Source: Leptonemataceae bacterium
GTDB lineage: Bacteria; Spirochaetota; Leptospiria; Leptospirales; Leptonemataceae
Direction: 5' to 3'
DNA: 64,000 nt
Assembly (NCBI GenBank): GCA_965227295.1
Contig: OZ245742.1
Location: 2,272,001-2,336,000, forward strand
Shown here: piece by piece, positions 7,490 through 24,555 of the stretch
How positions within the stretch are numbered: the stretch's first letter is position 1
How the letters are laid out: each line of letters starts with the position of its first letter
Program-made: the position numbers and the translations under genes
Notes under the pieces: generated by a model
Told to the model about the DNA's origin: nothing
What the model saw: the letters and a program-made list of their open reading frames with translations, nothing else
The model's database searches: none

Positions 7490-7748
7490 TGCCGACACCG
7501 GTCCCGATGCCGTGAAAGCCGCCCTGCGTAATATCACTTATGCCGACGCTCTGTTGAAACGAAAGATCCCAGGTATCGTTCGCGTTGTACGTCAGACCCG
7601 TGCCGACGCTGTGACCGTAACTGTACTGACCCTCGCGGCCATCCCACGCCGTACTCACGCCGCCGGTAAAACTCAGGTCGCTGCCGGTCGGTCCGAAACC
7701 CACGCCCACGTTCCACGAGGCCTGGCCCAGATTATTGTGAATGTTGCC
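7490..7748 (-). pseudogene. Toxin scaffold fragment (cassette 4 remnant; no HINT or toxin)
   Basis: Near-identical to about 20642-20900 of the full-length gene (NIHNNLGQASWNVG...GTGVG), then unrelated sequence. Confidence 0.85.
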
Positions 7749-7753
7749 TATTT

Positions 7754-7892
7754 GGGCGTGCCGGCCCGCCGCGCCGCGGAGGCGGCGGGCCGTCGCGCTG
7801 CTCCGGGCTCCGCTTCGCTTCGGTCTCGCGAAGACGCGAGACTCGCGCTATCGCGCGACCCTGCGCATCGCTCACGCTTGTGGTTCGGGGCG
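7754..7892 (+). repeat. Structured cassette-boundary element, copy A1 (Flavo-1-like)
   Basis: 139 bp, GGGCGTG...ATCGCTCACGCTTGTGGTTCGGGGCG; identical by eye to 10162-10300 and 17573-17711. Confidence 0.9.
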
Positions 7893-7980
7893 TTGATTTT
7901 TTGCGGAGAATAGAACTCGTGACTTTGTGCCAGATGGATCTTGACTATTATATTCAATCACTCGGCGTGTAACAGAGCCA

Positions 7981-8466
7981 CTATTCGTGAAGGCTTAAGT
8001 CGAAATAATAGCAATCGAGACAATTGTCTCCGTAGCGCTCCCAGAATACCCTGAAAACCGCTTCCGCGCGAGAATACCCGGCATCTGCACGTTCTTCCCT
8101 CGAGGGAGAGGCATGAAGATCAATTTGTGGACCGTGAGTCGGATACTGAGCGAACGTCTGGGAGCATATAACTTCTCTATCATGCGCAAATACGATTCGG
8201 CGCTCCCCGTCCTGTAAGGCTTCGGAAATATCCAGGTCCCGGGTTTGCTGAATATTCCATGGCGTATCAGGACCATATAGCATTAGTACCCGATCCCATT
8301 TCCCGGATACGACATCGGATAGCTTTATGATGCATTCTCCACTTGAGGTTCCAGACTCTACACATTTTGCATAGAGCTTTGAACCCAGACCACAGTCATT
8401 AGAGCCCTTGCAATACGGCTGAGCCAGAGTACAGGCAAGAACAATAAATAAGCCAAGTTTTCGCAT
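7981..8466 (-). CDS. Putative immunity protein of cassette 3 (exported/lipoprotein-like, Cys-rich)
   Basis: Directly downstream of the toxin; signal peptide MRKLGLFIVLAC; paralogous to 18537-19001 (SD...G.WD, RR..F......C, C..CY.Y.L). Confidence 0.7.
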   Translation of the reverse strand: MRKLGLFIVLACTLAQPYCKGSNDCGLGSKLYAKCVESGTSSGECIIKLSDVVSGKWDRVLMLYGPDTPWNIQQTRDLDISEALQDGERRIVFAHDREVICSQTFAQYPTHGPQIDLHASPSREERADAGYSRAEAVFRVFWERYGDNCLDCYYFDLSLHE

Positions 8467-8478
8467 CTGTTTACTATC

Positions 8479-10155
8479 CTAACCTTTGCCGGCGAAAGCT
8501 CGTTTTCGGTCAAGCCAATCCTGTTCCGCTTTGGTTCGCCCTGTTTCGTTGCGATTTAGAATTTCCGAGCGTGCTTGATCATATTCAGCCTCTGAAAGCC
8601 TGATCCGCTCAATCTTGTAGACATTGTCTGCTGCCCCGGGGGCCTGTTCATTCACAAGAACGATTTGCCACAAGCCATTTGTCCTATACTCTTCGAGCAC
8701 TTTGAGAGACATCTCTCGCATTCCGATTCCGGGATTATCCGCGCCGATTCTTCTGCCAATTTCATTGTTTTTCAAGTCTACAACAGAATCGGCGTCCCTG
8801 CGGCCTCCGTCTCGAAGTCCAATAAACTCATGATCGTCAGCGTAAGTATCTGCGACTTTCGGATTCGGCTCATGGGCATCGCCTACTTCTTGAGCGATGT
8901 CTTCACCCAAGCGCTCGGCGATAGTAGCTTGCCAGAGAGTATGCCTGAAAGCATTTCTCTGTGTGCCTTCCCCGCCCATAAAGCTGGGTTCTTTGAGGCC
9001 ACTGCCGGTGGTGAATCTGACGGCAGTGCTCGTAATGTTGTCGGTACCTGCAACGTTGAGTCCGATGATGGCGGCCTCCACGGGATTCTCCAGCGCAAAC
9101 CTCTGTGTCCGACTGAGCAAGCTCCATGTTGTATCCAAAAGCGCTGAGAGTTCTCTTTCGATGTAATCGGGTATGGAAAAATAGTCGGCCGGATCTTGAT
9201 TGTGAACAAGGACTGAAATCTCGGAAACAAAAAAATTATGCTCATTGGCTACACTCAGGTTATAAACGTTACCCGAATAGCTCAGCCTCTTGATTTCCTT
9301 TATTCCGACCCTTTTTTCACTTGCCGTGATTGCTAAATCACCTGGCTGAAGTGATCGAGCCGGGACCCATCCCCTGCCTTCTATATAGAACGGATGGGAC
9401 CATGTTGTTTCAATGACCGTATCTTCGGTTTCAAAGGTAATCTTATATATAGAGGAAGTAGTGCGAACGAAAGTGTGAGTGATCGGTTTAAACACGGGCC
9501 TCGACTCCGCCAGATTCTTGCTGAGCACAAAATCGCCAACCTGAATTTCCTCGATGCTTTTGTACCATTTCCCATTGTGGAGGAAGGCTTCAGAGGTATC
9601 CGGATGCACACGCACAAGCGTTCCCGCAACAAAACAAGTCTTAAACTCAAATTCCCCATTCTCATCAATCCAGCCGTTCACGTTACTCGCATCGCCACCG
9701 AACAAGAACGCCAGTTCATCCCCGATGCCACCGATCAACTCTGACAACCAACTATCGCCACGCGAACCGCCGATGAACCCCGCATCCATCAACGCATCCC
9801 GAATCGGTCCTTCTTCATGCGCAAGTTCCGGATTCTCGCGCAGCTTCTCCGCCTGCTCCGGCGTAAGCTTGTCGTCTTTCACGAGCTCATCAATCTTCGC
9901 GAGCCGCTGCTCTTCCCACGCCGTCACATTCCCTAACTGCTTGTCAAGTTCACTTAACTCATCGCGAATCGCATCCAACCGCTCCGGTGACGTATTCGGA
10001 TTCGCCGCTTCCAGCTCCAGTTCCGCTTTTAGCGTGTGAATCCCGAGCGCCGCCGCGTCCAGCGATTGAATCTCGAAGTCCGTCGTAATCCCCTGCGACG
10101 CCGTAACATGCCCGTCGCCGAAGTTAAACGTGGTGCCGACGCCCGTCCCGACGCT
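8479..10155 (-). CDS. Orphan toxin cassette 3: truncated scaffold + HINT + C-terminal toxin (NAFRH..WQA...HE type, DUF6973-like)
   Basis: Scaffold copy; CFVAGTLV...VLVHN HINT; GTQRNAFRHTLWQA...GDAHE; preceded in frame by TAA TGA, so probably silent. Confidence 0.85.
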   Translation of the reverse strand, partial: SVGTGVGTTFNFGDGHVTASQGITTDFEIQSLDAAALGIHTLKAELELEAANPNTSPERLDAIRDELSELDKQLGNVTAWEEQRLAKIDELVKDDKLTPEQAEKLRENPELAHEEGPIRDALMDAGFIGGSRGDSWLSELIGGIGDELAFLFGGDASNVNGWIDENGEFEFKTCFVAGTLVRVHPDTSEAFLHNGKWYKSIEEIQVGDFVLSKNLAESRPVFKPITHTFVRTTSSIYKITFETEDTVIETTWSHPFYIEGRGWVPARSLQPGDLAITASEKRVGIKEIKRLSYSGNVYNLSVANEHNFFVSEISVLVHNQDPADYFSIPDYIERELSALLDTTWSLLSRTQRFALENPVEAAIIGLNVAGTDNITSTAVRFTTGSGLKEPSFMGGEGTQRNAFRHTLWQATIAERLGEDIAQEVGDAHEPNPKVADTYADDHEFIGLRDGGRRDADSVVDLKNNEIGRRIGADNPGIGMREMSLKVLEEYRTNGLWQIVLVNEQAPGAADNVYKIERIRLSEAEYDQARSEILNRNETGRTKAEQDWLDRKRAFAGKG

Positions 10156-10161
10156 TCATTA

Positions 10162-10300
10162 GGGCGTGCCGGCCCGCCGCGCCGCGGAGGCGGCGGGCCG
10201 TCGCGCTGCTCCGGGCTCCGCTTCGCTTCGGTCTCGCGAAGACGCGAGACTCGCGCTATCGCGCGACCCTGCGCATCGCTCACGCTTGTGGTTCGGGGCG
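10162..10300 (+). repeat. Structured cassette-boundary element, copy A2
   Basis: Same 139-bp sequence as 7754-7892. Confidence 0.9.
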
Positions 10301-10364
10301 GGTCATCTTCACTTGCGCATAGCGCCGTGATTTCGGGCACATTAATCACGCATGAACACTTCTT

Positions 10365-10838
10365 TTAATGGTCCGCGTTGTCGAGATCATCAAGAAATTT
10401 CTGAGGGTTTCTGACAAATTTCGCGGCAGGAGAGGACTTCATTTCACGGAGAATTAACTTATAGTTTGCAGGAATCAACCTGCCGGACTCGGAGATAAAG
10501 ACTAGTTCGAATGTCTTTGCCAGTTCTACAATTTTGATCAAGAGAGTGTTGTCTTTTCGAAGATCAAACCTCAAACGTATCTCACTCAGATAGCCATTCT
10601 TGAAATAGCACGTTAGATCCTCGCTTTCGACGTCGCCCCAGATTTTGATGTTGGGAGACCATGAAGAAGCAGAAGGCAGAAAATCAATGGCTTTGAGCAG
10701 ATTTTCTACTTTCCCATTTTCAGCCCACCACGCTATCGAATGAAACGTGTCTTGATCAATGACCATGGGCCATTCGGTGAGATTTGATTCCACAGATTCG
10801 CGAGGAACGAGATAGAATGTAGTTTGCCATGTCGCCAT
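10365..10838 (-). CDS. Hypothetical protein, likely orphan immunity protein
   Basis: 157-aa AT-richer ORF within the toxin array, same strand. Confidence 0.6.
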   Translation of the reverse strand: MATWQTTFYLVPRESVESNLTEWPMVIDQDTFHSIAWWAENGKVENLLKAIDFLPSASSWSPNIKIWGDVESEDLTCYFKNGYLSEIRLRFDLRKDNTLLIKIVELAKTFELVFISESGRLIPANYKLILREMKSSPAAKFVRNPQKFLDDLDNADH

Positions 10839-10867
10839 GCGACTACTTCTCTCCAGCCTGGACCCGG

Positions 10868-11272
10868 CTACTTTTTTTGGATATCCTTTGTAGCTCGCTT
10901 AAGAAACCGCATTATCTCGAAAAGGTCGGACGTGGATCCGTCTTTGCCCCGGTGCACTGGAAGCAAGCGTTGCGAAGAGTTGGGCAGGTCGATCGTAAGG
11001 TATTCCGCAGTTGATTTTGACTCCGGGAACTGTATGTCCTTAATGTCCTCGTATCGAATCAATTGCCAGTGCAGGTCGGTCCGAATATGGACCCCAATCG
11101 TCGTAATCAATAAGGCGGAATCCAGAGTGTCCTCATGATTTCTAAAAATGCCGACGATTTTTTCTCCCTCTGTACACTCCGGCAAGGCGGACTGATCTAT
11201 GCGGATTCTCTCCGCCGGAGTATAACGCGACATGGGCCGGAGAATTCTGTGTGCACGTGATTCAACGTTCAT
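10868..11272 (-). CDS. Hypothetical protein, likely orphan immunity protein
   Basis: ORF from MNVESRAHRIL, preceded by what may be a short toxin-tip remnant (...KGIEAEFSQSQNKEKIEIPL*). Confidence 0.55.
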   Translation of the reverse strand: MNVESRAHRILRPMSRYTPAERIRIDQSALPECTEGEKIVGIFRNHEDTLDSALLITTIGVHIRTDLHWQLIRYEDIKDIQFPESKSTAEYLTIDLPNSSQRLLPVHRGKDGSTSDLFEIMRFLKRATKDIQKK

Positions 11273-11391
11273 ATGGTCCCTATAGCGGAATTTCGATCTT
11301 TTCTTTGTTCTGAGACTGAGAGAATTCTGCCTCAATACCCTTGCGCTTGAGCATTTCTTTAAGCAATCGACGTGGTTGTTAATTTGCGATC

Positions 11392-11793
11392 TCAGGCTGA
11401 TACAAAGTACTGACCACGATCCATGGCATCGGAGTCCATTTCTATGATCGTTTGACCGCCAGAAGGATCATATCGGATCCATTGGGTGTCATTCGTCGAA
11501 TTTTCGTCCGGGGCAGCAACCTGGGTCTGAAGAAGGCTTGCAATCTGTCCGTAGAGTGCTGTGGGCGTTTTTGAACGAAGTATATTGTTGTCAAAAAAGA
11601 GATCAATGAATGTGCGGAAATCGCCGGCAATCGGATAAAAAACGAACCAAACCGGAGACTCTCGATGTTCGGATATCTCTTCGATATTTCTCACAGCAAG
11701 GACTTGATTCGCAGGCGTATTCGTGATTGTGGATATGCACTGCCTGAGTTCAGTTGCTTCGAATGTTCCTTCGAGGATAAAGTTCAAATTCAT
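11392..11793 (-). CDS. Putative immunity protein of cassette 2
   Basis: ATG overlaps the toxin stop (ATGA); no signal peptide. Confidence 0.7.
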   Translation of the reverse strand: MNLNFILEGTFEATELRQCISTITNTPANQVLAVRNIEEISEHRESPVWFVFYPIAGDFRTFIDLFFDNNILRSKTPTALYGQIASLLQTQVAAPDENSTNDTQWIRYDPSGGQTIIEMDSDAMDRGQYFVSA

Positions 11794-13634
11794 TTTTTTG
11801 CCAACTTCCAAACTTCTCGCGCTCTGTTGATATCTTCAAGGGGAATCTTCATTCTATCCAATATGTCACGCGAATATGGTGTGTCACCGAGCTGGTTGAG
11901 CACTCCGAGTGCCTTAAACTGAGCACGGTTGAGAAAGTGGAAGCCATCACCGGCAACGGGGAAAAGCGTACCGTTCGGCTTGATGCCGTATATTCTTCCA
12001 TTAATGATAAAATGGTCATTTAGGAGAATACCATTCCCTGCGTTAATTTCCGCGACGTCTGCATCAACGTCAACCCACGACTCGATTACGGTGTTTTTAT
12101 CCTTGGCTACTGTTCTCTGATTGACCCGATCTAGTGAGTGGCGGGATGCTGGTTTTCGAAATTCCTCACCACGTCTCTCCGGGTCTTCCGTGTAGTTGTC
12201 ACCCTGACGATCGCGTTCATTGCGTTCCTCCTGGCTCTCATCCGAATAGCGCGCTGGTGGAGGTTTCACTTCCTCTCCGGAATCGGGTACGCTTCCATCG
12301 CCCGGACGCCCGTCTTCAGGGTCGCCACTTATTAGCTCCGGCGGTTTATCATCCGCCGTGCACCACATTACACAAGCAGTACCGGCCCGGATAAGTCCCA
12401 GGGCTACCAGAGCATTAACTCCTGCTGTCCAAATCCAGTTGGCGTAATTGTGAACGAGAATGGAAGAATCCGAAACGAAATAGGTATGGCTTCCGGCAAC
12501 TTCGAAATTGTAGACCGTGGCCCGGCCCGGCTCAATAGTAATTCTGACAATCTCAAGGGAGGCTCCGGATCCAAGGAGAGAGAGCTGTCCCTCACGAAGC
12601 TTCTCCGCTTTTACCCAGCCTGCTCCAACGATATAAAATGGGTGGTTCCAGGTAGTTTTAACTTCGACTCCGTTGGAATAAAGAATTCTATAAATCTGAT
12701 CCGCTTCTCTGGCATATGTCTTCGTAACGGGAGCGTAGAGAGTCTTGCCGGCAACTTCATCGAAGCTGAGGACACGATCGCCGGCCTCAATGTTTTCGAT
12801 GAGTTTATAGGACTCTGCGTTTCGTTTGAAAGCTCCCGCGGTTTCTGGATGTACTTGCACAAGCGTACCGGCCACGAAACACGTCCGAAACTGGAACTCC
12901 CCATTCTCATCGATCCAGCCGTTCACGTTACTCGCATCGCCACCGAACAAGAACGCCAGCTCATCCCCGATGCCACCGAGCAACTCCGACAACCAACCTT
13001 CCCGCGAACCGCCGATAAACCCCGCATCAATCAACGCATCCCGAATCGGCCCTTCTTCATGTGCCAGTTCCGGATTTTCGCGTAGCTTCTCCGCCTGCTC
13101 CGGCGTAAGCTTGCCGTCTTCCAGGAGTTCATCAATCTTCGCGAGTCGCTGTTCCTCCCACGCCGTTACATTCCCTAACTGCTTATCAAGATCACGTAAC
13201 TCATCGCGGATTTGCTCCAGCCGCTCCGGCGACGTATTCGGATTCGCCGCTTCCAGCTCCAGTTCCGCTTTTAGCGTGTGAATCCCGAGCGCTGCCTTTT
13301 CCAGCGATTGAATCTCGAAGTCCGTCGTAATTCCCTGCGACGCCGTAACATGTCCGTCTCCGAAGTTAAACGTTGTGCCGACACCCGTCCCGATGCCGTG
13401 AAAGCCGGCCTGCGTAATGTCGCTCACACCGACGCTCTGCTGAAACGAAAGATCCCACGTATCGTTCGCATTGTACGTCAGCCCCGTGCCGACGCTGTGA
13501 CCGTAACTGTATTGACCCTCGCGTCCATCCCACGCCGTACTCACGCCGCCGGTAAAGCTCAGGTCGCTGCCCGTCGGTCCGAAACCCATGCCCACGTTCC
13601 ACGAGGCCTGGCCCAGGTTATTGTGAATGTTGCT
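11790..13634 (-). CDS. Orphan toxin cassette 2: truncated scaffold + HINT + unrecognised toxin domain
   Basis: Scaffold from SNIHNNLG; CFVAGTLV...ILVHN; hydrophobic segment, acidic linker, then ...GRIYGIKPNGTLFPVAGDG... tip. Confidence 0.85.
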   Translation of the reverse strand, partial: SNIHNNLGQASWNVGMGFGPTGSDLSFTGGVSTAWDGREGQYSYGHSVGTGLTYNANDTWDLSFQQSVGVSDITQAGFHGIGTGVGTTFNFGDGHVTASQGITTDFEIQSLEKAALGIHTLKAELELEAANPNTSPERLEQIRDELRDLDKQLGNVTAWEEQRLAKIDELLEDGKLTPEQAEKLRENPELAHEEGPIRDALIDAGFIGGSREGWLSELLGGIGDELAFLFGGDASNVNGWIDENGEFQFRTCFVAGTLVQVHPETAGAFKRNAESYKLIENIEAGDRVLSFDEVAGKTLYAPVTKTYAREADQIYRILYSNGVEVKTTWNHPFYIVGAGWVKAEKLREGQLSLLGSGASLEIVRITIEPGRATVYNFEVAGSHTYFVSDSSILVHNYANWIWTAGVNALVALGLIRAGTACVMWCTADDKPPELISGDPEDGRPGDGSVPDSGEEVKPPPARYSDESQEERNERDRQGDNYTEDPERRGEEFRKPASRHSLDRVNQRTVAKDKNTVIESWVDVDADVAEINAGNGILLNDHFIINGRIYGIKPNGTLFPVAGDGFHFLNRAQFKALGVLNQLGDTPYSRDILDRMKIPLEDINRAREVWKLAKK

Positions 13635-13639
13635 TATTT

Positions 13640-13763
13640 GGGCGTTCCGGCCGGCGCCAGGCCCAGGCGCCGGCCGTCGTGCTGCTCCGGGCTCCGCTTC
13701 GCTGCGGTCTCGCGAAGACGCGAGACTGGCGCTGCGCGCCACCCTGCGCATCACTAACGCTTG
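13640..13763 (+). repeat. Structured cassette-boundary element, divergent copy A3
   Basis: GGGCGTT...ATCACTAACGC; same layout as A1 with compensatory changes in four stems. Confidence 0.85.
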
Positions 13764-14039
13764 CGAATCCAACGTTAGTCGCGAAGAACCGAACGACCCC
13801 GTGGGTCGCGGTGCGAATTCCGCACACGTGTGCGAAATTCAGCATATCACTTCGGCAGAGGCGGACCTCTGCTAACCTATCTCGCCGCAATGTGTCCGTT
13901 CAGACTCCCTGCGCGCCTGTTAAAGATCCCCTGATCTCATCCGAAACACGGCCCTCACAGCAGTTATTTCGGCGTGCCTGTTGAGCACATTTCGTCAATA
14001 ATGCTACATGCAATATACGTTTGCAACTCTAATCGTACC

Positions 14040-14614
14040 GCTTGAAAGACAATCCTGCCTGGGGACCGCACGAAATTCAGCGAGAAATGATTGCGCTGGG
14101 TTTTCTCGAACGCCATCCTGCACAGACGTTTCTCAATCTGCATCGCGACCGCATTGCGGCAATGGATTTCTTTGTGGTGTATCTCTGAAACTTCGTACCC
14201 GTGTATGTTTTTTTTAGTCATCGGCCATGCTATGGCAGGCATAATGTTCTGCACGTGAATGTTACGAGGCATCCCACGTTCGCACGGGTGAAGCAGCAGT
14301 TGCGCGCGGCGTTTCCGGGCGATCACGATGCACGGTTTCTCGTTCACGACAACGAGCCCGTGTTTCAGGCGTGCCGGAGATTTATGGAAACCTGCCTGGA
14401 TATTGCGCCGCTGCGAACTGCGCTGTGCTCGCCGTGGCAAAATGGAATCGCGGAACGTTTCGTGAAGATTGCACGGAACATGTGTACGGATCACATTGTG
14501 CCGTTGAGTGAGCGGCACTTGTTGAAAGTCATGCGCGAGTTTGCGCAGTACTACAACGATGACCGTGGTCATTCACTTTCAAACTCGGACATTCTCGGCT
14601 CTCATCTTATCTAA
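14040..14614 (+). mobile_element. Degraded IS transposase, integrase core (rve; IS3/IS481-like) pseudogene
   Basis: DNPAWG..IQ.E, AMDFFVV, HVNVTRHPT, FLVHDN, SPWQNGIAERFV, YYN..R.H; contains a stop and frameshifts. Confidence 0.8.
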
Positions 14615-14955
14615 GTTGTGATCAGGGTCCATTCGCAGTAGGGTAAAGGTAAAAGATGGAGTGTTGCCTGAGCGGCGAAGCCTTCGATTTGGAAGAGAAT
14701 CTTGAGAAAAGGGCCATGGTGCCCTTCCAGGATTTCGATCTCCTCCGCCTTTTCAGAGGAAATCAAAGCTATGGTCCTTCCTCCGGTTCTGAGAATTACC
14801 TGAAAGGAGTCTTCCACTCCACTGAAGGAAAATTCCAACTCCGTATTTTCCTTCTCGTAGGAGAGTAAGAAGCGGTAAAATGATTCTTCTACGTTCTTTT
14901 CTATTGGCTCAATATCCAGCGCCTCAAGAAACTCTAATTCCGTGGGATGTTTCAT
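14611..14955 (-). CDS. Putative orphan immunity protein
   Basis: 114 aa, acidic; follows the decayed toxin tip at 14959-15260. Confidence 0.6.
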   Translation of the reverse strand: MKHPTELEFLEALDIEPIEKNVEESFYRFLLSYEKENTELEFSFSGVEDSFQVILRTGGRTIALISSEKAEEIEILEGHHGPFLKILFQIEGFAAQATLHLLPLPYCEWTLITT

Positions 14956-14958
14956 CCT

Positions 14959-15260
14959 TTATGGTGCTCCTCTAAACGGTATCGTTGTGGAAAGCTTGCG
15001 TGTCCCGTCATCTTCAGCATGTCCTAATTTCTTGGCCAGTGCACGGGCTCCCTCGTGAATACGCGGATCGAGACTGTGCAGTGCTGGCCAGAACTCGGCT
15101 TAGCATCCGTTGAGCGTATGCAGCCGATCCTGCGCCGCCGCCAATCCCAAGTCCTACCAGCCATTGGCCGGGGCCGGTAGACGTTAACCATAAAGAGGCA
15201 GGACCGCAAAACGCCCAACACCCAATGGTGGTTCCCGCCAGTCCGGCTCCGATGAACTCT
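14959..15260 (-). pseudogene. Decayed toxin C-terminal fragment
   Basis: Manual translation EFIGAGLAGTTIGCWAFCGPASLWL...GLGIGGGAGSAA, then a frameshift to GARALAKKLGHA...PFRGAP*. Confidence 0.5.
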
Positions 15261-15371
15261 TATAGAACCTTGAATTCCGGTCATAGCCGCTTCGCTTGCT
15301 GCTACTTTCAAGACCGCAATCTCGGGGCCCTTACTTCCACCTTGCGAATCGTACCTGCTACCATGTTTTGT

Positions 15372-15785
15372 TTATTGATCGGAAAGAAAGAACAGATGCG
15401 AGTCGGGGAGGCGCTTTACTATAGCGGCTTTTTCCAGGCATGCGAGAGCATCGGCAACAAGCTTATGATTCTGCCATTCTGGAAAGTGTGCTACATGATT
15501 CGAAGCAAATCGGTAGAGGCGCCATGCGTCAAACCCGTCAACTCGACCATTGGGACCAAAGTCGAAATCAACTATTTCGCCTCCCTTAAGGTCTTCAATC
15601 GTACAACCCATTCCATGGAAAGTTATCGTCCAATGTTTCCCTGGAACCTCCTCACCCGAGCGTATCAGGCGCTTTCTATGTGCTCGCAATAAATCACTTT
15701 CAGAAAACGCATCCGTCAATTCCTGAAATACAGATGTTGTCGTACGTACATATTCATTTATGAGCGGAATCAGATCTAAATTCAT
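15372..15785 (-). CDS. Putative immunity protein of cassette 1 (DUF6896-like)
   Basis: FHGMGC...VDFDFGPNGRVDGFDAWRL; starts 2 nt after the toxin stop. Confidence 0.7.
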   Translation of the reverse strand: MNLDLIPLINEYVRTTTSVFQELTDAFSESDLLRAHRKRLIRSGEEVPGKHWTITFHGMGCTIEDLKGGEIVDFDFGPNGRVDGFDAWRLYRFASNHVAHFPEWQNHKLVADALACLEKAAIVKRLPDSHLFFLSDQ

Positions 15786-15787
15786 TT

Positions 15788-17566
15788 CTACCTCAGCTTG
15801 TCGGGGCCGGCTTCGACGGCGTGCCAGAGAATTTCATCAAGTGACCCGTACTTGTACTTCGTCAAAGCCTCAGCCTCATCGAGGACTTTGTAATGTACAT
15901 CAATTTTCGCACGTGCTGCTGCGGCAACGCGGTGATGGCCATCAAGAACATACTTACGGCCGTGGATGATGACTACTTCGATTGGATCCCCAATCCAGCC
16001 ATCTTGACGCATGCTTGCTGCCAGCTTCCTGACTGTATCCGAAGAAGCATTACCTCCAATGGAATGAGTCTTAAAGAACTCAGACGGTCCGGCTGTTCGT
16101 ATGGCGGGAACGATGCCCTGCCGCCCGGCAAACAACCTCGCGGCCCCGGCAGTCGTCAGCCTGAATCCAGTCCGTAGCGCCGAACCGATACCCCACACGG
16201 TCAGATAGTAATCGACCATACTCGGCACTTCGTCAATCGCACTACCGCCGAGAACCACGCCGTCTTTGCTCACGAATTCGAACGAATCACCGAAGTCATA
16301 CACCGCGCCGATCGAATCCCAGAGTTCCATCGGTACATTGTTAGCGTGCAGAAATTCTCTGCGTTCGATCTCGGTCAGCGCGGCTTCGATTTCTTCCTCC
16401 GGAACATTGACCGACTCAAGGAACATGCGCGTATTAGCAGCCACGTCGCCGTCACCATCGAGGATGCCGTTGTCGGCCATATGCAGGGCCTGCTGGACGA
16501 GATTGCGTTCGAGCAGGTCCGGATCGGGAGCGTCCGGGAAAGCGTGCTTCGGCGCCGTGCGGACCTGGCCGCTGTCAATCTTCTGTTGCACCCATCGATC
16601 GTAAGCATCGCCCGGGGCGTTGTGGACGAGCAGGTCCGACGTCGTCACATGATAGCTATGAGCGTTTGCTACTTCGAAGTTGTAGACGGTTTCGTTACCT
16701 TGCCCAATCTCGATCCCGACGATTTGATTCGTGCCGGTACTCGTCTGCGAGCGATCACCGACAGTGAGCCGTTCCGCCTGAGTCCAGCCTTTCCCCGCGA
16801 TCCAGAACGGGTGGTCATGCGTCGCCTGCACGGTCATTCCGTCTTCATAGGAAATCGTAAAGATACGATCAGAAGATCTTACGAACGTTCGCAGCACCCG
16901 GTTCCACTCAAGTCGGCCGGTCCTTTCGTCCCACGAAAGGACCACGTCGCCTCGAACGACCTCTTCGATCTTCTTGTAATACCTGCCCTGGATTTCGATC
17001 GCCGCATATGTTGCCGGAGCGACCCGCACGAGTGTGCCGGCCACAAAACAGGTGTTAAATTCAAACTCCCCGTTCTCATCAATCCAGCCGTTCACGTTGC
17101 TTGCATCGCCACCAAACAAGAACGCCAGCTCATCCCCGATGCCACCGAGCAACTCCGACAACCAGCCTTCCCGCGAACCGCCGATAAACCCCGCATCAAT
17201 CAACGCATCCCGAATCGGTCCTTCTTCATGCGCAAGTTCCGGATTCTCGCGCAGCTTCTCCGCCTGCTCCGGCGTAAGCTTGTCGTCTTTCACGAGCTCA
17301 TCAATCTTCGCGAGTCGCTGCTCTTCCCACGCCGTTACATTTCCTAACTGCTTATCAAGATCACTTAACTCATCGCGAATCTCATCCAACCGCTCCAGCG
17401 ACGTATTCGGATTGGCCGCTTCCAGCTCCAGTTCCGCTTTTAGCGTATGAATCCCGAGCGCCGCCTTTTCCAGCGATTGAACCTCGAAGTCCGTTGTAAT
17501 TCCCTGCGACGCCGTAACATGTCCGTCTCCGAAGTTAAACGTGGTCCCGACACCGGTCCCGACGCT
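15788..17566 (-). CDS. Orphan toxin cassette 1: truncated scaffold + HINT + ParB/Srx-fold toxin
   Basis: CFVAGTLV...LLVHN; SMRQDGWIGDPIEV...YVLDGHHRVAAA; preceded in frame by TAA TGA. Confidence 0.85.
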   Translation of the reverse strand, partial: SVGTGVGTTFNFGDGHVTASQGITTDFEVQSLEKAALGIHTLKAELELEAANPNTSLERLDEIRDELSDLDKQLGNVTAWEEQRLAKIDELVKDDKLTPEQAEKLRENPELAHEEGPIRDALIDAGFIGGSREGWLSELLGGIGDELAFLFGGDASNVNGWIDENGEFEFNTCFVAGTLVRVAPATYAAIEIQGRYYKKIEEVVRGDVVLSWDERTGRLEWNRVLRTFVRSSDRIFTISYEDGMTVQATHDHPFWIAGKGWTQAERLTVGDRSQTSTGTNQIVGIEIGQGNETVYNFEVANAHSYHVTTSDLLVHNAPGDAYDRWVQQKIDSGQVRTAPKHAFPDAPDPDLLERNLVQQALHMADNGILDGDGDVAANTRMFLESVNVPEEEIEAALTEIERREFLHANNVPMELWDSIGAVYDFGDSFEFVSKDGVVLGGSAIDEVPSMVDYYLTVWGIGSALRTGFRLTTAGAARLFAGRQGIVPAIRTAGPSEFFKTHSIGGNASSDTVRKLAASMRQDGWIGDPIEVVIIHGRKYVLDGHHRVAAAARAKIDVHYKVLDEAEALTKYKYGSLDEILWHAVEAGPDKLR

Positions 17567-17572
17567 TCATTA

Positions 17573-17711
17573 GGGCGTGCCGGCCCGCCGCGCCGCGGAG
17601 GCGGCGGGCCGTCGCGCTGCTCCGGGCTCCGCTTCGCTTCGGTCTCGCGAAGACGCGAGACTCGCGCTATCGCGCGACCCTGCGCATCGCTCACGCTTGT
17701 GGTTCGGGGCG
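17573..17711 (+). repeat. Structured cassette-boundary element, copy A4
   Basis: Same 139-bp sequence as 7754-7892. Confidence 0.9.
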
Positions 17712-17817
17712 CTTTCTCACAAGAACTGGTGGATTGCCGTCGCCTGGGGAGGAAGCGAAGAAAAGACGCGGAAGCAGAGTGGATTGGACCTCGTCTTTAT
17801 GGAGTCAGGACGAGTCT

Positions 17818-18279
17818 CTAAAGATTTTCAAATTCTCGCCAGCCTTTTGTTTCTGCGTCGGATAAAAGGGGATCCTCTCCACGACCACCGTCGCCAATTG
17901 CAAACTCTATTTTCTTGTCATTGGAAAATTTCTTAAGAACATCGTTGATTGTTTCAATGGGTTCTCCGGCCTGTATCATGCTCAGGCCCGAATCCACGAT
18001 AGAATGATACTGTGTGAGACAGTGTCGCTCTCTTTCGGCGACTGCGATCAATCCCCTCTGGATTGAATCCGGAGAAGCGCCCTTCAAGATAGCTGTCAGT
18101 CCAAAGGCGAGGCTTTCATCCTTAATCTCTGATGCTATTTCCTTAAGCGAGGCAAGGCCTTTTTCATCGGCCACTCTGGCAACAGACAATAGAATCGCGA
18201 TTTTGACCGGCAGGCTTTGGAATCGCAGATCGTGCTTGAGGATAGTCTTGAGTTCTTCGAGTGAATATAACTTTATCAT
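17818..18279 (-). CDS. Hypothetical protein resembling MotA cytoplasmic segments without TM helices
   Basis: GGAG RBS; ADEKGLASL...IKDESLAFGLTAILKGASPDSI and IVDSGLSMIQAGEP recall MotA ARxEGLLAL..DxFLxxGLxxxxDG and EGxxxIQxGExP. Confidence 0.5.
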   Translation of the reverse strand: MIKLYSLEELKTILKHDLRFQSLPVKIAILLSVARVADEKGLASLKEIASEIKDESLAFGLTAILKGASPDSIQRGLIAVAERERHCLTQYHSIVDSGLSMIQAGEPIETINDVLKKFSNDKKIEFAIGDGGRGEDPLLSDAETKGWREFENL

Positions 18280-18324
18280 TGATTCTCCATGCCCAATCAA
18301 TAGCTTCCTACGCGCTCTTCGATT

Positions 18325-18474
18325 ACACTTATTGCATAGAGCTTTGAACCCAGACCACATTCATTAGAGTCTGTGCAATACGGCTGAGCCAGAGTACAGG
18401 CAAGAACGATAAATAAGCCAGGTTTGCGTATCTGTTTAACATCCCAGATTCGGCTCATGGGCACCGCCTACTTC
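18325..18474 (-). pseudogene. Relic copy of the cassette-3 toxin/immunity junction
   Basis: 18325-18444 matches about 8360-8479 with ATG changed to ATA; 18447-18474 matches 8862-8889. Confidence 0.8.
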
Positions 18475-18536
18475 AGCCGACCCCCATCAGTATGAAGTCC
18501 GGTTAATAGAACGCCTGGCATCTCATTTTCGTAATC

Positions 18537-19001
18537 TCAGGGTTCAGGATAAAGTGCATAGAAGTAACAGCCCTCACATGATTGCGGCAGTTTTTCGCGC
18601 ACAATCCGATATGTAGCATCCCGGGCGGCTCTGTTGCCCTGGCCCGGCAGAAATCCCATGGAAATAGTGGACTGGCGCAGACCATACTGCGGATATTCAA
18701 TGGAGCAAACGAGTGATGTTCCCTTTACAAAGAGCAATCGTCTCTTTGAATCCGGTATGTCCTCTGAATACGGGAATTCTAATATCGCGCTAACTTCGTC
18801 TGAGAACATTGGTCCACCAAACTCGTATATCCAATCCCAGTCTCCTCCGATCAAGTCGGACATCCTGGCCCGGCAGTTCTCGAAGTCCTCGCAGTAGGAC
18901 TCGATGCGTGGAATAAGACTACAATCGCGCATCTGTTGTTTGCACGCAGGTTCTATCGCAACCAAGAACAATACTATAATGAGCAGTACTGCCTTATACA
19001 T
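18537..19001 (-). CDS. Cognate immunity protein of the full-length toxin (exported, Cys-rich)
   Basis: Signal peptide MYKAVLLIIVLFLVAIEPAC; directly downstream of the toxin; paralog of 7981-8466. Confidence 0.75.
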   Translation of the reverse strand: MYKAVLLIIVLFLVAIEPACKQQMRDCSLIPRIESYCEDFENCRARMSDLIGGDWDWIYEFGGPMFSDEVSAILEFPYSEDIPDSKRRLLFVKGTSLVCSIEYPQYGLRQSTISMGFLPGQGNRAARDATYRIVREKLPQSCEGCYFYALYPEP

Positions 19002-19011
19002 CGTAGTTGGC

Positions 19012-22000
19012 TCAATCCCACGAAGGATGAGGGGTCTGATCTCTCGCTCTCTGTTCTGCATTTGTAAAACCGCTGTCGTTTAAGTGTATGATCGTAGCCA
19101 TCGCCTGAATATACCGGTCAGGACTCAGGCGAACCCTTTCAATTGTAAACGTATTGCCCGGGCCGGGCACAGCTTGCCAGAGGCCATTTTTGTGATATTC
19201 TGTAACTGTTGCAAGCGCAATCGTTTGCATTCCCTCTCCTCTATAGCGGGAACCGATATCGCGGCCGATTCGGTTGTTAAGCTGATCAACAATGGTGTCT
19301 GCAAGTGTTCTTCCACTCAAGCCTTGAAACACTTTTCCCTCAATGTCCAGCCCTTGGCCGGCAGTCGGATTTGGCTCGTGGGCATCTCCGATCTGAGTTG
19401 CAATATCTTCACCGAATTCAGAGGTAATCGTAGCCTGCCATAATGCATGCCTGAATGCATTTACCTCGGTGCCTTCACTACCCATGCTTGGAGTGTTCTC
19501 CAGACCGATTCTCGTAGCAAACCTCACGGAATTTGTGGTAATGTTCGTAGAACCTGATACGAAAGGGCCAATCCGGGCCGCTGCGTGTGGATTATCCCGG
19601 ATAAATTCTCCTGTGGGAGAAAGCATATTTAAATCTGGAGCATCAGAGAACATTTTTGCGATTTCGGTCCGAATGAATCTGCCCAGACCGGCATCGTAAG
19701 TATCCGTCTGATTATGTACAACAACCTGAGATGGACCTACCAAATATGTATGAAGATCCTCGACCGACAGGTTGAATACTTCAGTCTTCCTTTCTCTTGT
19801 AGAGATGGCGACCAATCCAACAACACCTCCTTGGGTCATTAGAATAGATTCGGCCGTAAGGGATTCAGCTTTGACCCAACCTTTGTCCATTACCCAGAAA
19901 GGGTGACTCCAGGTGGTTTCAATTTGGTCACCGGTTGCGAGTGTAAGAACGTAGATCTCAGATGCTTGCCTTGCGAACGTCTTCCGCACACGCTTCCATT
20001 CGAATTCACCTGTAATTACGTTCCAGGCGCGAACAATATTTCCAGTTCGAATTTCCTCGATTTCTTTGAAAAACCGTCCGTGCTTTTCTTCACTTTCGGG
20101 AGTACTCTCATGCACCTGCACAAGTGTTCCTCCAACAAAACACGTTCTAAAATGAAATTCTCCAGTTTCTTCATCAATCCAGCCGTTTACATCGCTTGCA
20201 TTGCCACCGAAGAGAAACTCCAGTTCATCCGCTGCACTTCCGAGCAGTTGTGAAATCCAATTGTCGCCGCGGGAAGGGTCCTCATACCCCGCATCAATCA
20301 ACGCATCCCGAATCGGCCCTTCTTCATGCGCCAGTTCCGGATTCTCGCGCAGCTTCTCCGCCTGCTCCGGCGTAAGCTTGTCGTCTTTCACGAGCTCATC
20401 GATCTTCGCGAGTCGCTGTTCCTCCCACGCCGTCACATTCCCTAACTGCTCCTCAAGTTCACTTAGCTCATCGCGGATCGCATCCAGCCGTTCCGGCGAT
20501 GTGCCCGGATTCGCCGCTTCGAGACGCAACTCCGCCTGAAGCGTGTGAATCCCGAGTGCCGCCTTTTCCAGCGATTGAATCTCGAAGTCCGTCGTAATGC
20601 CCTGCGACGCCGTAACATGCCCGTCGCCGAAGTTAAACGTTGTGCCGACACCCGTCCCGATGCCGTGAAAGCCGGCCTGCGTAATATCACTTATGCCGAC
20701 GCTCTGCTGAAACGAAAGATCCCACGTATCGTTCGCGTTGTACGTCAGCCCCGTGCCGACGCTGTGACCGTAGCTGTATTGACCCTCGCGTCCATCCCAC
20801 GCCGTACTCACGCCGCCGGTAAAACTCAGGTCGCTGCCGGTCGGTCCGAAACCCACGCCGACGTTCCACGAGGCCTTGCCCAGGTTATTGTGAATGTTGC
20901 TTTCGAAATTCTGATAGTACCCGAGATTTCCTCCGGCCCAGTCGCCGCTGTGCGCATCCCAGGAACTGCCGAGGCCAATGTGCCCGAACTCTCCGCCTTC
21001 GCCGAGGTCCACACCGATCGACGCGCCGTAACCGGTGATGCCCTCGTACTCGTTGTAACTGAAATTCACACCGGCACTCAAACCGAACGCGTCGCCCTCG
21101 TCGCCGCCGAGGATCGGTAGCTTAACCCCGCCGGTCATGCCGAAGCCCTGCTCAAAACTATAACTGAAACCGATCTGACCCACGCCGCCGGTGTAATAAC
21201 TCAACGCGCCCTGGGCCGCGCCGCTGGCGAGGCCCGCGAGCGCGCCGGTCGTGCCGCCGTGCAGCGACCCAAGATAACTCTGCTTCGCCGAATAATACGC
21301 CGCGGTAACCGCCGCCGCCGTCGCGTTTCCGATGCCCGGTAAAATCGAACTCACCACCTGTAACGTCGTAAACGCCGTCGTCTCCACCGCCTGGAGCGCC
21401 ACCTGGCCGTCGTCGTGATACTGCGCGTTCCGCCACGCATACGTCGGCGAACTCATGGCGGCGAGCGTATGTCCGGCGGCGCTCAGTTGCGGGCTGCCGC
21501 TGTAAGCCAGCGCATTGCCGAGAACCACGAACGGCCCGCCGACCATGTCCTCCGGCCGCAACCGCATGGCACTCCGGCGCTGGTCTCTAAGCTGCGCCTT
21601 GCTATATTCTTGTGACAACCAGTTAGAAAGACCGGGGATCCCCAGCGCATCCTCGACCAGGCTCAGGCTGTAGCTCACCGCCGCGTAGCCCAGATCGCCG
21701 CCGCTGCCGAGCAGGGCGCCCCACGCCCCCGCGGGAATGCCCGTCACGTCTTCCAGCGCCTGGGTCATCGGCGCCATCAGCGCGCTGCGCACCGAACCGG
21801 TGGCGGCGCCCAGGGCCGTGCCGCCGGTCGCCATGCTGAAGATCATCTCTTCCAGCAACTCCGCCTGCTGGATCAGGCCGGACCGCGAACCCTCGAACTG
21901 CTGCACGCGATTGTCGCGCAGTTGGTCCGCCGCGTACATCGTCTGGCCAATGTTCTGAAACTGATCGTTCGCGTCGTCGTAGAGTTCGTCTAACCCGTCC

Positions 22001-24555
22001 GCGTACGAACCTAAGACCGCGCCCGCGTCCCAATCATCAAAAAGGTGGCCCGTCTCCGGTAGCGCGCTGTAGCCCGCCCCGGCGATGTTCAACGTCTGCG
22101 TCGTTTCCCCCGCGACGTAGGCTTCTTCCAGCGTCGCGTCGCCGCCGATGTAGTAAGCCTCACCGTTTTTAATCGTGCGTGTCGCAAGCAACCGCCCGTT
22201 GCGTTCTTCCACGGTCCACACCGCGTCGGTGCTGTCCTCGCGTTCTTCCTGAATGATCTGATCCGCCGTCTTCTCGTCGAGGTCGATCTCGTGCCGGAGC
22301 ACGTACCGCATCAACGTATCAACATCCAGCTCATCCCCCTGGCCGACCTGCTCCATAATGCGTTCGATGATCTCCGCGCGAGAAAGATCTTCGAGCGCAT
22401 CGGCTTCCACGCCTTCGATTTGTGCGAGCACCCAGTCGAGAAAGATGCTCGTATCGTTCGCGTCGGCGTAACGATCCGTCGTGATCATGTCGATCGTCAT
22501 CGCCTGGATCTTCGCGCGCTCGCGTTCGTAACCGAGCTGCATCGCGTTCGTGAGAGCAAGATTGCCCGAACCCGCAAGACTGCGCCGTGCGCCGTTTTCG
22601 AACGCCGCCAGTCGCGCAACGTCGGGAATGCCGTTGTCGATGACGCTCAGATAACCGGACGTAATCTGCGGCCCTTCGAGATAGTTTAGATTCGTTATGA
22701 GTTTCGCCGCGTCGGGCGCGTCCTCGATGGCGGCGATGTTACGCACGGCAGCGCGCACGATCTCGCGCTGTTTCTCCGGCGCGTATTGCTGCGCCGCGGC
22801 CACGCTTGCGCGGCTGTCCCGCCAGGTCTTCCGGCCGGCTTTTTTCGTATCCGCGGCCTGCGCCATCCAGCGACTCTTCGCCGTCGCGAGCAGTGCAGCG
22901 TTCTCTTCATAAGTACTGCGGGCCTGCCCGCGAAATTGATCCGCCTGCGTGAGCCATTGCTGATAGTTCGCTTCGTATTGCGCGCGCTGAGTTTCCCAGG
23001 CCTGCGCCGCCGGAAGATACTGCGAATCCCACTGCGCGATCATCGCGTCGAGATCGTTCATGTATCCCTGCCAGCGATTCACATTTGCCTGCGCGTTATG
23101 GTCGACGTAACGATACGAAACATCGATGCGCGCTTCGGCTTCGCTGTGAATGTCCGTGCACTGAGTAAACGATATGCCGCCGAGGCCGCCGCCACCGCCC
23201 GGGCACAGATAGCTGAAACGATACTCGTAAGCGCCCGCGCCCGCAACGCTGTAAAGCTCCTGGGTATTCGTAAGCTGTCCCGGCAGGCCGATCGGATACA
23301 AACCCGCGGGCGAGTAGCCCTGCGCATCGGCACTCAAAATTTGAATGCTGCGGTGTCCCGGCTCGCCGGACCACGCGCGTACCTGATTGATCAACGTGGA
23401 ATGATTTCCATTATAGTAATCGCGAATGGCGATCAGTTCGCTGATGCTGTGCGTCGCGGCGGCACCGAGACTCCCGAGCGGCACGGCGGTATTCGGCAGG
23501 CTAATGTCCTGAGTAACCCGACCGGCCCAGACGTCGCGCTCGCTCTCGGCGTCCGCGCGGCGGGCGATCAGTTCATCGCGCATCAACGTCGCGATGCTGG
23601 AAAGCGGCGCATTTGCGGCCAGCTGCGCCTGCAGGGTCGCAATGGTCGCCTGGATCTGCAGGCCGGCGGCGTTCAGGTTGTTCCAGTCGGGACTACAGCT
23701 GTAGCTCGCGTCACAGTTCTCGTCGTGAAAGACGGCGTGATTGCTCACAAACGAGTCGAGGGAAGTCAACTGACCGGCAAGGCCCTGGCGCACGTGATCT
23801 TCGGCGGCCCGCACCGACGCTAAGTTCTCTTCGAATTGACTTTGGGCCGCGGCCAGATTCGCGAGGAAGTTTCGGTAGTCGTTGTACTGCCCGGCTTCGG
23901 CCGCACGGAACTGTGAGAGCCCCTGCTGCACTTCCAGGTCGTACCGGCGTTCCCAGGCGCGTTCCCCGGCGGCCAATCGTTCTAATATATTTTCAAACGA
24001 AGTTTGATCAAAACTGTCTTCGATCGCCTCCGCGTTACGTTCGATCTCAACCTCGCTGCGTTGATTGCGCGCGACTTCCAGGCCTTCGGCAATCGCCGCG
24101 AGATAATCCTGCCGACCCGCGGCGGTGTCGATGTCGATCTGAGATTCCCACGCGGCAAAGGCGGCGGCGCGCTGGAGTTCCAGTTGTGCCCGCAGATAGC
24201 TCCGATATTCGGCCGTGTTGTGAAAGGCGTCGCTGTGATTGACGCCGCTCAGATAACTCTGGATCTCGGCGTCGACCGCGGCTTCCCAGCGCGCCGTCCA
24301 GATGGCGCGCATGTCCGCAATGTTTTGTTCGTAGCCGCTCAGATCATCCGCGTCCGCCGCGGCCTGCTCGCGTTCGCCGGACGCCTCGCCGGGATACTGT
24401 GAAGGGTCCAGATTCGGCACGGGTACGGCCTGCGCTGCCAGAGGGGCCGTGGATATAGTGGATATAAACAACATCACGCCGGCGGTCAGCGCCGCGGTCG
24501 CCCGGCGAAAGAGGGACCTGTATTTATAAGAACGGCTTTTCATGTGAGTTACCAA
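19012..24555 (-). CDS. Full-length secreted polymorphic toxin (TIGR04388-like large protein) with HINT domain (19711-20142) and NAFRH-type C-terminal toxin
   Basis: 1847 aa; signal peptide ending PLAAQAVPVPNL; helical N-region; Gly-rich beta region; CFVGGTLV...VVVHN; GTEVNAFRHALWQA...GDAHE. Confidence 0.88.
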   Translation of the reverse strand: MVTHMKSRSYKYRSLFRRATAALTAGVMLFISTISTAPLAAQAVPVPNLDPSQYPGEASGEREQAAADADDLSGYEQNIADMRAIWTARWEAAVDAEIQSYLSGVNHSDAFHNTAEYRSYLRAQLELQRAAAFAAWESQIDIDTAAGRQDYLAAIAEGLEVARNQRSEVEIERNAEAIEDSFDQTSFENILERLAAGERAWERRYDLEVQQGLSQFRAAEAGQYNDYRNFLANLAAAQSQFEENLASVRAAEDHVRQGLAGQLTSLDSFVSNHAVFHDENCDASYSCSPDWNNLNAAGLQIQATIATLQAQLAANAPLSSIATLMRDELIARRADAESERDVWAGRVTQDISLPNTAVPLGSLGAAATHSISELIAIRDYYNGNHSTLINQVRAWSGEPGHRSIQILSADAQGYSPAGLYPIGLPGQLTNTQELYSVAGAGAYEYRFSYLCPGGGGGLGGISFTQCTDIHSEAEARIDVSYRYVDHNAQANVNRWQGYMNDLDAMIAQWDSQYLPAAQAWETQRAQYEANYQQWLTQADQFRGQARSTYEENAALLATAKSRWMAQAADTKKAGRKTWRDSRASVAAAQQYAPEKQREIVRAAVRNIAAIEDAPDAAKLITNLNYLEGPQITSGYLSVIDNGIPDVARLAAFENGARRSLAGSGNLALTNAMQLGYERERAKIQAMTIDMITTDRYADANDTSIFLDWVLAQIEGVEADALEDLSRAEIIERIMEQVGQGDELDVDTLMRYVLRHEIDLDEKTADQIIQEEREDSTDAVWTVEERNGRLLATRTIKNGEAYYIGGDATLEEAYVAGETTQTLNIAGAGYSALPETGHLFDDWDAGAVLGSYADGLDELYDDANDQFQNIGQTMYAADQLRDNRVQQFEGSRSGLIQQAELLEEMIFSMATGGTALGAATGSVRSALMAPMTQALEDVTGIPAGAWGALLGSGGDLGYAAVSYSLSLVEDALGIPGLSNWLSQEYSKAQLRDQRRSAMRLRPEDMVGGPFVVLGNALAYSGSPQLSAAGHTLAAMSSPTYAWRNAQYHDDGQVALQAVETTAFTTLQVVSSILPGIGNATAAAVTAAYYSAKQSYLGSLHGGTTGALAGLASGAAQGALSYYTGGVGQIGFSYSFEQGFGMTGGVKLPILGGDEGDAFGLSAGVNFSYNEYEGITGYGASIGVDLGEGGEFGHIGLGSSWDAHSGDWAGGNLGYYQNFESNIHNNLGKASWNVGVGFGPTGSDLSFTGGVSTAWDGREGQYSYGHSVGTGLTYNANDTWDLSFQQSVGISDITQAGFHGIGTGVGTTFNFGDGHVTASQGITTDFEIQSLEKAALGIHTLQAELRLEAANPGTSPERLDAIRDELSELEEQLGNVTAWEEQRLAKIDELVKDDKLTPEQAEKLRENPELAHEEGPIRDALIDAGYEDPSRGDNWISQLLGSAADELEFLFGGNASDVNGWIDEETGEFHFRTCFVGGTLVQVHESTPESEEKHGRFFKEIEEIRTGNIVRAWNVITGEFEWKRVRKTFARQASEIYVLTLATGDQIETTWSHPFWVMDKGWVKAESLTAESILMTQGGVVGLVAISTRERKTEVFNLSVEDLHTYLVGPSQVVVHNQTDTYDAGLGRFIRTEIAKMFSDAPDLNMLSPTGEFIRDNPHAAARIGPFVSGSTNITTNSVRFATRIGLENTPSMGSEGTEVNAFRHALWQATITSEFGEDIATQIGDAHEPNPTAGQGLDIEGKVFQGLSGRTLADTIVDQLNNRIGRDIGSRYRGEGMQTIALATVTEYHKNGLWQAVPGPGNTFTIERVRLSPDRYIQAMATIIHLNDSGFTNAEQRARDQTPHPSWD

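Follow-up and report, generated by a model that had tools for sequence, protein, structure and literature searches.

The locus described here occupies positions 7,490 to 24,555 of a 64,000-nucleotide stretch (the window) of contig OZ245742.1 from a Leptonemataceae bacterium, and holds a polymorphic toxin gene followed by truncated toxin/immunity cassettes, each of which starts behind a copy of a folded element. Read on the minus strand, the order is full-length toxin and immunity gene, E1, cassette 1, E2, cassette 2, E3, cassette 3, E4 and a scaffold stub (Table 1), where E1 to E4 are the element copies of the window; this is also the order given in the original prediction, which was made from the sequence alone. 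The full-length gene scores 245.6 bits against TIGR04388 (cut-off 45), and the combination of TIGR04388 and PT-HINT domains with three truncated copies that differ in their tips assigns the locus, by its sequence content, to the known class of polymorphic toxin arrays. Toxin tips and immunity genes are predicted, from position and domain alone. The DUF6973 tip is common to the full gene and cassette 3; the tip of cassette 2, originally listed without an assignment, gave no match in the domain search, and the ParB fold originally proposed for cassette 1 came down to a weak match below the cut-off (E 0.011). In what follows, G000 denotes the source genome of the window (93.6% complete), other G numbers denote relative genomes and L numbers loci, and B stands for the folded element in the array model.

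Table 1. Features of the toxin array (positions in the window)
Feature	Position	Strand	Details
Full-length TIGR04388-family polymorphic toxin	19012..24555	-	1847 aa; PT-HINT at aa 1496-1615, DUF6973 tip
Putative immunity gene of the full toxin	18537..19061	-	assigned by position; no family match
Cassette 3 remnant with internal deletion	18324..18474	-	28 nt of tip and 121 nt of immunity gene start (90%)
Element E1	17569..17711	-	core 17573-17696
Cassette 1	15788..17565	-	scaffold from about aa 1299, PT-HINT, weakly ParB-like tip
Cassette 1 immunity candidate	15372..15785	-	DUF6896
Broken rve_3 (DDE) integrase	14045..14574	+	both ends truncated, internal deletion
Leader of about 260 nt	13775..14035	-	common to six other cassette-linked units of G000
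Element E2	13636..13774	-	core 13640-13760; 86% identical to E1/E3/E4, compensatory changes
Cassette 2	11790..13635	-	scaffold from about aa 1219, PT-HINT, tip without family
Cassette 2 immunity candidate	11392..11811	-	no family match
Element E3	10158..10300	-	core 10162-10285
Cassette 3	8479..10154	-	scaffold from about aa 1299, PT-HINT, DUF6973 tip
Cassette 3 immunity candidate	7981..8466	-	no family match
Element E4	7750..7892	-	core 7754-7877
Scaffold stub	7490..7747	-	258 nt, 96%; no TG end after the stub

The element is about 125 nt long, folded, and ends in CGCCC. The 143-nt copies E1, E3 and E4 are 99-100% identical to one another (the original prediction had noticed three copies that look identical over 139 bp) and share a left boundary to the base although their left flanks are unrelated. 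The fold is stronger than that of shuffled sequences (z -2.8 and -4.3, for the cassette-sense strand), and variable stem positions pair in 170, 169 and 159 of 171 copies, where shuffled controls average 129, 80 and 86; one more variable stem position is uninformative. In 24 copies from relatives, which are not independent of one another and for which the structure was chosen by the analyst, six core pairs are 100% paired, a level reached by none of 500 shuffles. GNA-type loops, a pattern drawn from the element itself, number 1080 on the cassette-sense strand and 24 on the other. Judged from these pairing and loop counts, the structure of the element is conserved and strand-specific, and the presence of the loops on one strand favours a single-stranded DNA form.

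Scaffold homology begins 7, 4, 7 and 6 nt past the terminal CGCCC of the window copies, in agreement with the earlier claim that all four truncated scaffold copies start close behind an element, and it enters the scaffold at only two points, about aa 1219 (E2/E4) and about aa 1299 (E1/E3). These two entry points and the three almost identical copies would suit a passive origin, in which one or two chance insertions of an abundant repeat were spread by tandem duplication. The rest of G000 gives a broader picture: among its 28 toxin-related open reading frames (ORFs), the element precedes 11/11 of those truncated at the 5' end (9 flagged automatically and 2 by hand, one with an element remnant and one with the element 3' end split by a group II intron), and lies within -400/+700 nt of 0/17 full-length ones. 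One hairpin subtype holds all 13 cassette-start copies, that is 13/16 of this subtype against 0/189 other copies. Local duplication does not account for all cassettes, since the analyst-seeded cassette at 768k is just 26% like the neighbouring toxin (E 7e-4).

Two toxin-like genes of more than 4300 aa (G000:750677-763945 and 5013499-5026602) are 98% identical over the approximately 1000 aa compared and diverge in their C-terminal parts, with element-led cassettes downstream of both. The array at 5008k adjoins an ORF with Tc-toxin TcA-type domains (L007:65-5266, G000 ~4998-5003 kb), and five full-length TIGR04388-like genes are clustered at G000:5063716-5126838 without truncated cassettes or elements.

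The relatives extend the pattern across the Leptospirales. About 41 distinct element-scaffold breakpoints were counted by hand in 18 other genomes, in TIGR04388-like and SpvB-RHS scaffolds; at 5 of them the element belongs to a second structured family, and at several it is separated from the scaffold by an additional module or linker. For this count, 51 rows were pruned of element self-matches, repeated joints and a shared-leader match (L059 15041), internal divergence breaks were dropped (L055 39882, L064, both L065, L088 6117, L097 and L120), and L111 was retained as a miss. Counted over all genomes, there are about 50 different breakpoints, spread over 19 genomes and over two scaffold families unrelated to each other, and at every junction examined a truncated copy has the element on its 5' side and on its own strand. 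This number of independent joints largely refutes the passive origin, which we regard as the least probable of the explanations considered here.

Selection by short HINT ORFs, which is independent of the integrase described below, found the element before truncated cassettes in 9/14 genomes; the remainder comprises four without element (G072, G027, G011 C3 and one G035 array) and one at a contig edge. The clusters chosen in G082 by a covariance model of the element turned out to be SpvB-FG-GAP-RHS arrays, in which a truncated copy begins behind 12/12 elements, 9 positions being used. A covariance-model scan for enrichment at cassette starts had been suggested with the original prediction, and when 150 candidates were scored per genome, 22/34 model matches in G082 started truncated copies; in G120 most of the matches examined are intergenic. 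Two genomes of the same genus without this integrase family have no element match, and each of their over-cut-off HINT domains lies in an ORF of at least 1782 aa; they nevertheless carry homologues of the second DDE family introduced below. In some relatives the element is also found upstream of full-length toxin genes.

The element is not confined to the cassette array, since G000 holds a genome-wide family of 235 nhmmer matches (152 blastn pieces), 205 of them near full length and 19 of the latter arranged as inward-facing pairs. Scatter of this kind without boundary enrichment had been named as the outcome that would count against a boundary role; the scatter is there, yet the enrichment at cassette starts is strong in G000 and in relatives, which leaves that outcome only half realised. 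Further window copies, solitary or facing, lie near 28.8-29.1 kb and 61.4-61.8 kb, away from cassettes.

In the Rfam database, a scan of the window gave no match, element copies included. Among 10 loci compared with the covariance model of Flavo-1 (RF01705), the junction element of one relative, which shares its core GAT...AGC stem, scored 41.6 bits against a gathering threshold of 42; the window copies differ from Flavo-1 in being longer and multibranched and in having no Rfam match. Flavo-1 appears as a Bacteroidetes candidate RNA in a table of PMC2864571, where no link to toxin cassettes is mentioned. Because a covariance model trained on relatives missed the window copies, the connection between window and relative elements rests on shared core motifs and pairing. 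A nucleotide profile trained on G000 recovered the element in just 1/20 relative loci, and a loose IUPAC pattern was discarded, being near background in GC-rich genomes.

At L059, L100, L123 and a G029 array (L217/L218), the second structured family, with a closing G-rich/C-rich hairpin, replaces the element before cassettes, and is often followed by short tandem heptamer-like repeats. HINT arrays at G072 C5/C8 (L220, L221) carry a different repeated intergenic sequence of about 110 nt, this element family being absent from them.

The window had been described as holding no candidate recombinase, and this proved incorrect: the broken rve_3 integrase between cassette 1 and E2 is 86-91% identical to an intact copy at G000:5011639-5012769. 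The family has four loci in G000, all in cassette arrays, with the one intact copy head to head with the element, and is present in 65/156 Leptospirales genomes. In a neighbourhood survey of all matches outside G000 at E <= 1.3e-30, toxin-like sequence lay within 6 kb of 57/86 copies, on the opposite strand in 57/57, and of the 29 copies scored without a nearby toxin some lie at contig ends, while at least one, L069, belongs to an array that escaped detection. The triad D168/D227/E262 is invariant in 15 sequences, and the predicted structure (pLDDT 78.5) matches TnsB, IstA and retroviral integrases, so that the modelled protein is a DDE enzyme with an RNase H-type fold. In its triad, rve_3 domain and TG terminus it resembles IS481/IS3-type insertion sequences (IS), whereas its scores of 64.4 and 69.7 bits for IS481 (NCBIfam cut-off 224) and of 52 and 49.8 bits for IS3 (cut-off 160) are far below threshold. 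In Actinomycetes, Myxococcota, Acidobacteriota and Proteobacteria, its relatives take the form of ordinary elements of about 1.2 kb with TG...CA inverted repeats. The Leptospirales copies, in contrast, have no upstream inverted repeat and no visible target duplication, and are clustered at toxin arrays: an inverted-repeat pair scores above shuffles in 26/42 copies from other phyla, 2/36 toxin-adjacent copies and 0/11 other Leptospirales copies. The 59 rve loci from other phyla gave 0 element matches, and 2 of them gave matches to the toxin seeds, the only toxin families covered by this comparison.

Downstream of the integrase gene, 51/73 scorable copies have a sharp TG end beyond which the flanks change. 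This end is joined, mostly to the base, to scaffold-stub ends, immunity-gene flanks, nearby B elements or leaders; its joints with stubs are exact in 6 cases, in addition to one CG variant, two with one extra nucleotide and two with one shared base. When a partner in inverted repeat was sought for the TG end in Leptospirales, scores stayed at shuffle level, and the G000 stretch TTTACGACACA, considered as such a partner, was not supported. A scan of genome contigs with a single rve query gave 28 pattern matches, 0 of which were confirmed, and was repeated with alignment. Miniature units consisting of a TG end and B without the gene occur in G000 (2367k, 2377k, 2381k), G134, G129 and G100. No target-site duplication was seen in three units of G000, whose flanks may have been rearranged since. 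The IS481 that follows the 800k array of G082 carries inverted repeats of the ordinary kind and was regarded as incidental. At L226:16345-16800 (G100), TG ends and element precede a seemingly intact small gene, not a truncated scaffold.

Other genes and mobile elements gather at these arrays. The leader that adjoins E2 in the window recurs at G000 768k and 5008k, where it lies directly 3' of a DUF1016_N-SNase gene or its remnant. One DUF1016_N-SNase gene of G000 spans 767002-768012. This gene is present in 39/156 genomes, often between integrase and element, has the element downstream on the same strand in 10/20 loci, and stands back to back with either of two DDE families. The second of these families, of about 440 aa, occurs in 22/156 genomes and has one TG end, with inverted-repeat scores at shuffle level; toxin-like matches lie within about 1.5 kb in 11/30 loci, all on the opposite strand. 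Many of its copies have one internal stop codon.

Identical group II introns with reverse transcriptase and maturase and no HNH lie inside the element 3' end at G000:2020604 and 2367847 (L005/L006); from their 5' end, GTGTG, we take them to be IIC-like. Another group II intron, HNH-bearing, is identical in two toxin arrays (G000:40139-41989 and 764646-766496; L002, L008), and at 42k it interrupts the sequence immediately behind an rve 3' remnant. Group II intron reverse transcriptases are capable of template switching, which opens an RNA route to the cassettes: the enzyme would copy a toxin-immunity transcript, stall in the scaffold and switch onto the 3' end of a B RNA, and the resulting 5'-truncated chimera would then be integrated. 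The variable 5' truncation, the few unmatched and often A-rich bases at the joint, and several intron reverse transcriptase genes in or beside the G000 arrays covered by the survey speak for such a route. We nevertheless consider it improbable, because the loops, found on one strand, form mini-hairpins of the DNA type, the reverse transcriptases belong to ordinary multi-copy introns present elsewhere in G000 too, and the TG-ended stubs would be left unexplained.

The enzymes that the original prediction proposed to profile, tyrosine recombinases and HUH/RAYT transposases, did not turn up at the arrays. Four PF00589 matches in G000 all lie away from cassette arrays. A search for the Y1 HUH transposase RAYT (REP-associated tyrosine transposase, REP being repetitive extragenic palindromic sequences) gave 0 matches in G000, its control being found in 6/14 genomes; a search for IS91-type Y2 HUH enzymes gave 0 matches, and its control likewise had none. 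These results bear on the analogy with integrons, in which an array of site-delimited cassettes, a strand-specific folded site and a divergent enzyme gene are found together. The toxin arrays share this layout, down to an enzyme gene divergent from the cassettes and a folded site kept by covariation, and on that reading B would be an attC-type site and a tyrosine recombinase would excise and reinsert B-to-B cassettes. Paired RYYYAAC/GTTRRRY boxes on one strand were found in 0/4 window copies (E2 has a single box), and no IntI-type recombinase is present at the arrays of G000. Whereas integron cassettes are whole genes with precise 3' sites, those of the toxin arrays have lost the 5' part of the gene, carry the site at that end and are joined to it at a variable distance of 0-30 nt. 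The integron analogy is thus not borne out in its detail, and we hold it to be highly improbable as a mechanism.

In toxin orientation, the recurring module consists of the TG end, the DDE integrase on the opposite strand, an optional DUF1016_N-SNase gene, the leader and B, followed by the cassette, and the joint between B and scaffold falls at many positions, 0 to about 30 nt past CGCCC (up to about 65 nt with a linker). From these joints, orientations and domain contents we infer, at about even odds (a probability of roughly 0.5), that the ends of an asymmetric DDE transposon join into toxin scaffolds and so give rise to cassettes and stubs, which are later shuffled by homology. The integrase would use its TG end for local strand transfers that delete or duplicate DNA and leave stubs, and B would serve as a structure-recognised substitute for the second end. 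Attack of B on a toxin gene, or its insertion into one, would remove the N-terminus and yield B followed by scaffold, tip and immunity gene, and removal of the DNA to the left of the TG end would yield element, stub and TG. Ends acting outward in this manner would explain both products. RecA-type recombination through scaffold or element homology would then copy and move the units and load tips onto full genes, a process that has been reported in other polymorphic toxin systems. Identical joints with different tips (in the window, G082 and G143) fit homologous recombination, as does the cassette 3 remnant behind the immunity gene of the full toxin, which, on its sequence, is a trace of an earlier rearrangement. 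More tentatively, one-ended DDE integrases may have been domesticated in the Leptospirales on two or more occasions. Such an integrase, working with a single TG end and a folded single-stranded DNA element and possibly helped by DUF1016_N-SNase, would form a dedicated machine that cuts within the scaffold of toxin genes and stores the tips together with their immunity genes.

Several observations weigh against the asymmetric transposon. Its weak point is the joint on the element side, which is imprecise and, unlike a DDE end, often does not end in CA; the element is abundant without integrases, and unrelated mobile elements gather there. About 190 of the 205 near-full-length G000 copies are solitary, intergenic and remote from any integrase, which indicates that no neighbouring rve gene is needed for B to move or persist. 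The clustering at B of two distantly related DDE families, group II introns and DUF1016_N-SNase also fits B as a landing site. Three stubs, that of the window among them, have no TG end, orphan arrays without B exist (G072, G027, G011 C3, one G035 array and L111), and no simple insertion with target duplication was found. In two public sequencing runs, for which contigs only were used, neither circles nor alternative joints were seen, nor was element-to-element excision or the loading of tips. Finally, kin genomes do not count as independent cases, and the same data served to derive the patterns used for the end and the element.

Alternatively, B might be primary, a self-standing single-stranded DNA element, similar to REP sequences or miniature inverted-repeat transposable elements, that some other enzyme, of which DUF1016_N-SNase is the most plausible, moves or cuts. 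B would then drag or delete into the toxin DNA adjacent to its 3' side, and the DDE elements would home beside B, lose their B-side end and make stubs only. The solitary copies and the one-strand excess of GNA-type loops point in this direction, as do the sharp 5' boundary of B, to the left of which the sequence is unrelated both among E1/E3/E4 and in G082/G134 arrays without TG end, the two insertions of group II introns at the B 3' hairpin in G000, and the position of DUF1016_N-SNase, upstream of B in half of its loci and back to back with either DDE family. The miniature units, however, retain both TG end and B after gene loss, the other 10/20 DUF1016_N-SNase loci have no downstream B within 1.5 kb, the gene is found in 39 genomes against 65 for rve, and G000 has no Y1 HUH transposase. 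We consider a primary B the less probable of the two, and the asymmetric transposon remains our preferred reading.

The arrays themselves are of a known kind, and what is new is the platform that delimits the cassettes. In the parts of the reports that treat orphan arrays of contact-dependent growth inhibition (CDI), Rhs and MafB systems, a full toxin and immunity gene are followed by silent 5'-truncated C-terminal/immunity modules that keep scaffold homology, with tip exchange by recombination proposed or reported (PMC3150448, PMC4287609, PMC3482391). There, IS elements disrupt orphans (PMC3150448) or flank islands (PMC4287609), and the cassette start is given without a cis-element or a dedicated enzyme. 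Here, in contrast, one structured element family marks most examined starts, and DDE integrases stand in a fixed orientation. Among mobile elements, telomeric TnsB transposons are described, in the portion bearing on this point, as having one defined transposon end and a structurally different second boundary (10.1101/2024.11.13.623437); the second boundary here is an internal folded repeat, not a telomere. IS91/ISCR elements and Helitrons are one-ended elements that capture adjacent DNA, whereas the enzyme here is DDE, not HUH. REP sequences, with their bacterial interspersed mosaic element (BIME) and REPIN arrangements, are GC-rich palindromic intergenic repeats of hundreds of copies that are accompanied by RAYT and targeted by other mobile elements. 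The present element resembles them in copy number, intergenic location, palindromic form and facing pairs, and differs in the absence of RAYT from G000 and in the fusion of one subtype inside coding sequence at toxin breakpoints. The delimiting platform thus fails the tests for an integron, an ordinary IS481/IS3 element and a REPIN-RAYT system, and is borderline for Flavo-1.

The element-marked cassette arrangement is real and order-wide, and apparently undescribed, with the mechanism divided between the two enzyme-based models above. No description of it was found in the open-access literature; subscription papers, supplements and ISfinder/TnCentral lay outside this scope and may name these IS. 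The origin and accumulation of orphan toxin/immunity modules is left open for CDI, Rhs and Maf systems in the relevant parts of PMC3150448 and PMC4287609, and a cassette 5' end with a defined cis-element and candidate enzymes makes that origin testable. If the Leptospirales have indeed domesticated one-ended integrases, as tentatively read above, the result would be a gene-capture platform parallel to integrons, using retroviral-type chemistry and reloadable tip and immunity cassettes, and would provide a first function for Flavo-1-like elements. The asymmetric transposon would represent a DDE element with one inverted repeat and a folded end, and would bring a role to a widespread structured motif that has had none. 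The arrangement as a whole points to a dedicated route by which the Leptospirales stock their toxin arsenals.

As regards the assembly, contigs of the two public runs, which come from one study, contain all unique segments of the locus and the left junctions of the elements; no contig bridges the cassette order. The joints listed for these contigs lie inside repeats. The depth of run X1 (cassettes 237-254, full-gene tip 204, flanks 179-200) was not used as evidence of copy number, which depth does not give, and run X2 was too shallow for comparison. Elsewhere in the window, at 33668-36174 and 44326-45429, there is a separate set of intergenic tandem repeats, about 330-430 nt in length (families D2, D4, D5, D7 and D8), unrelated to the element.

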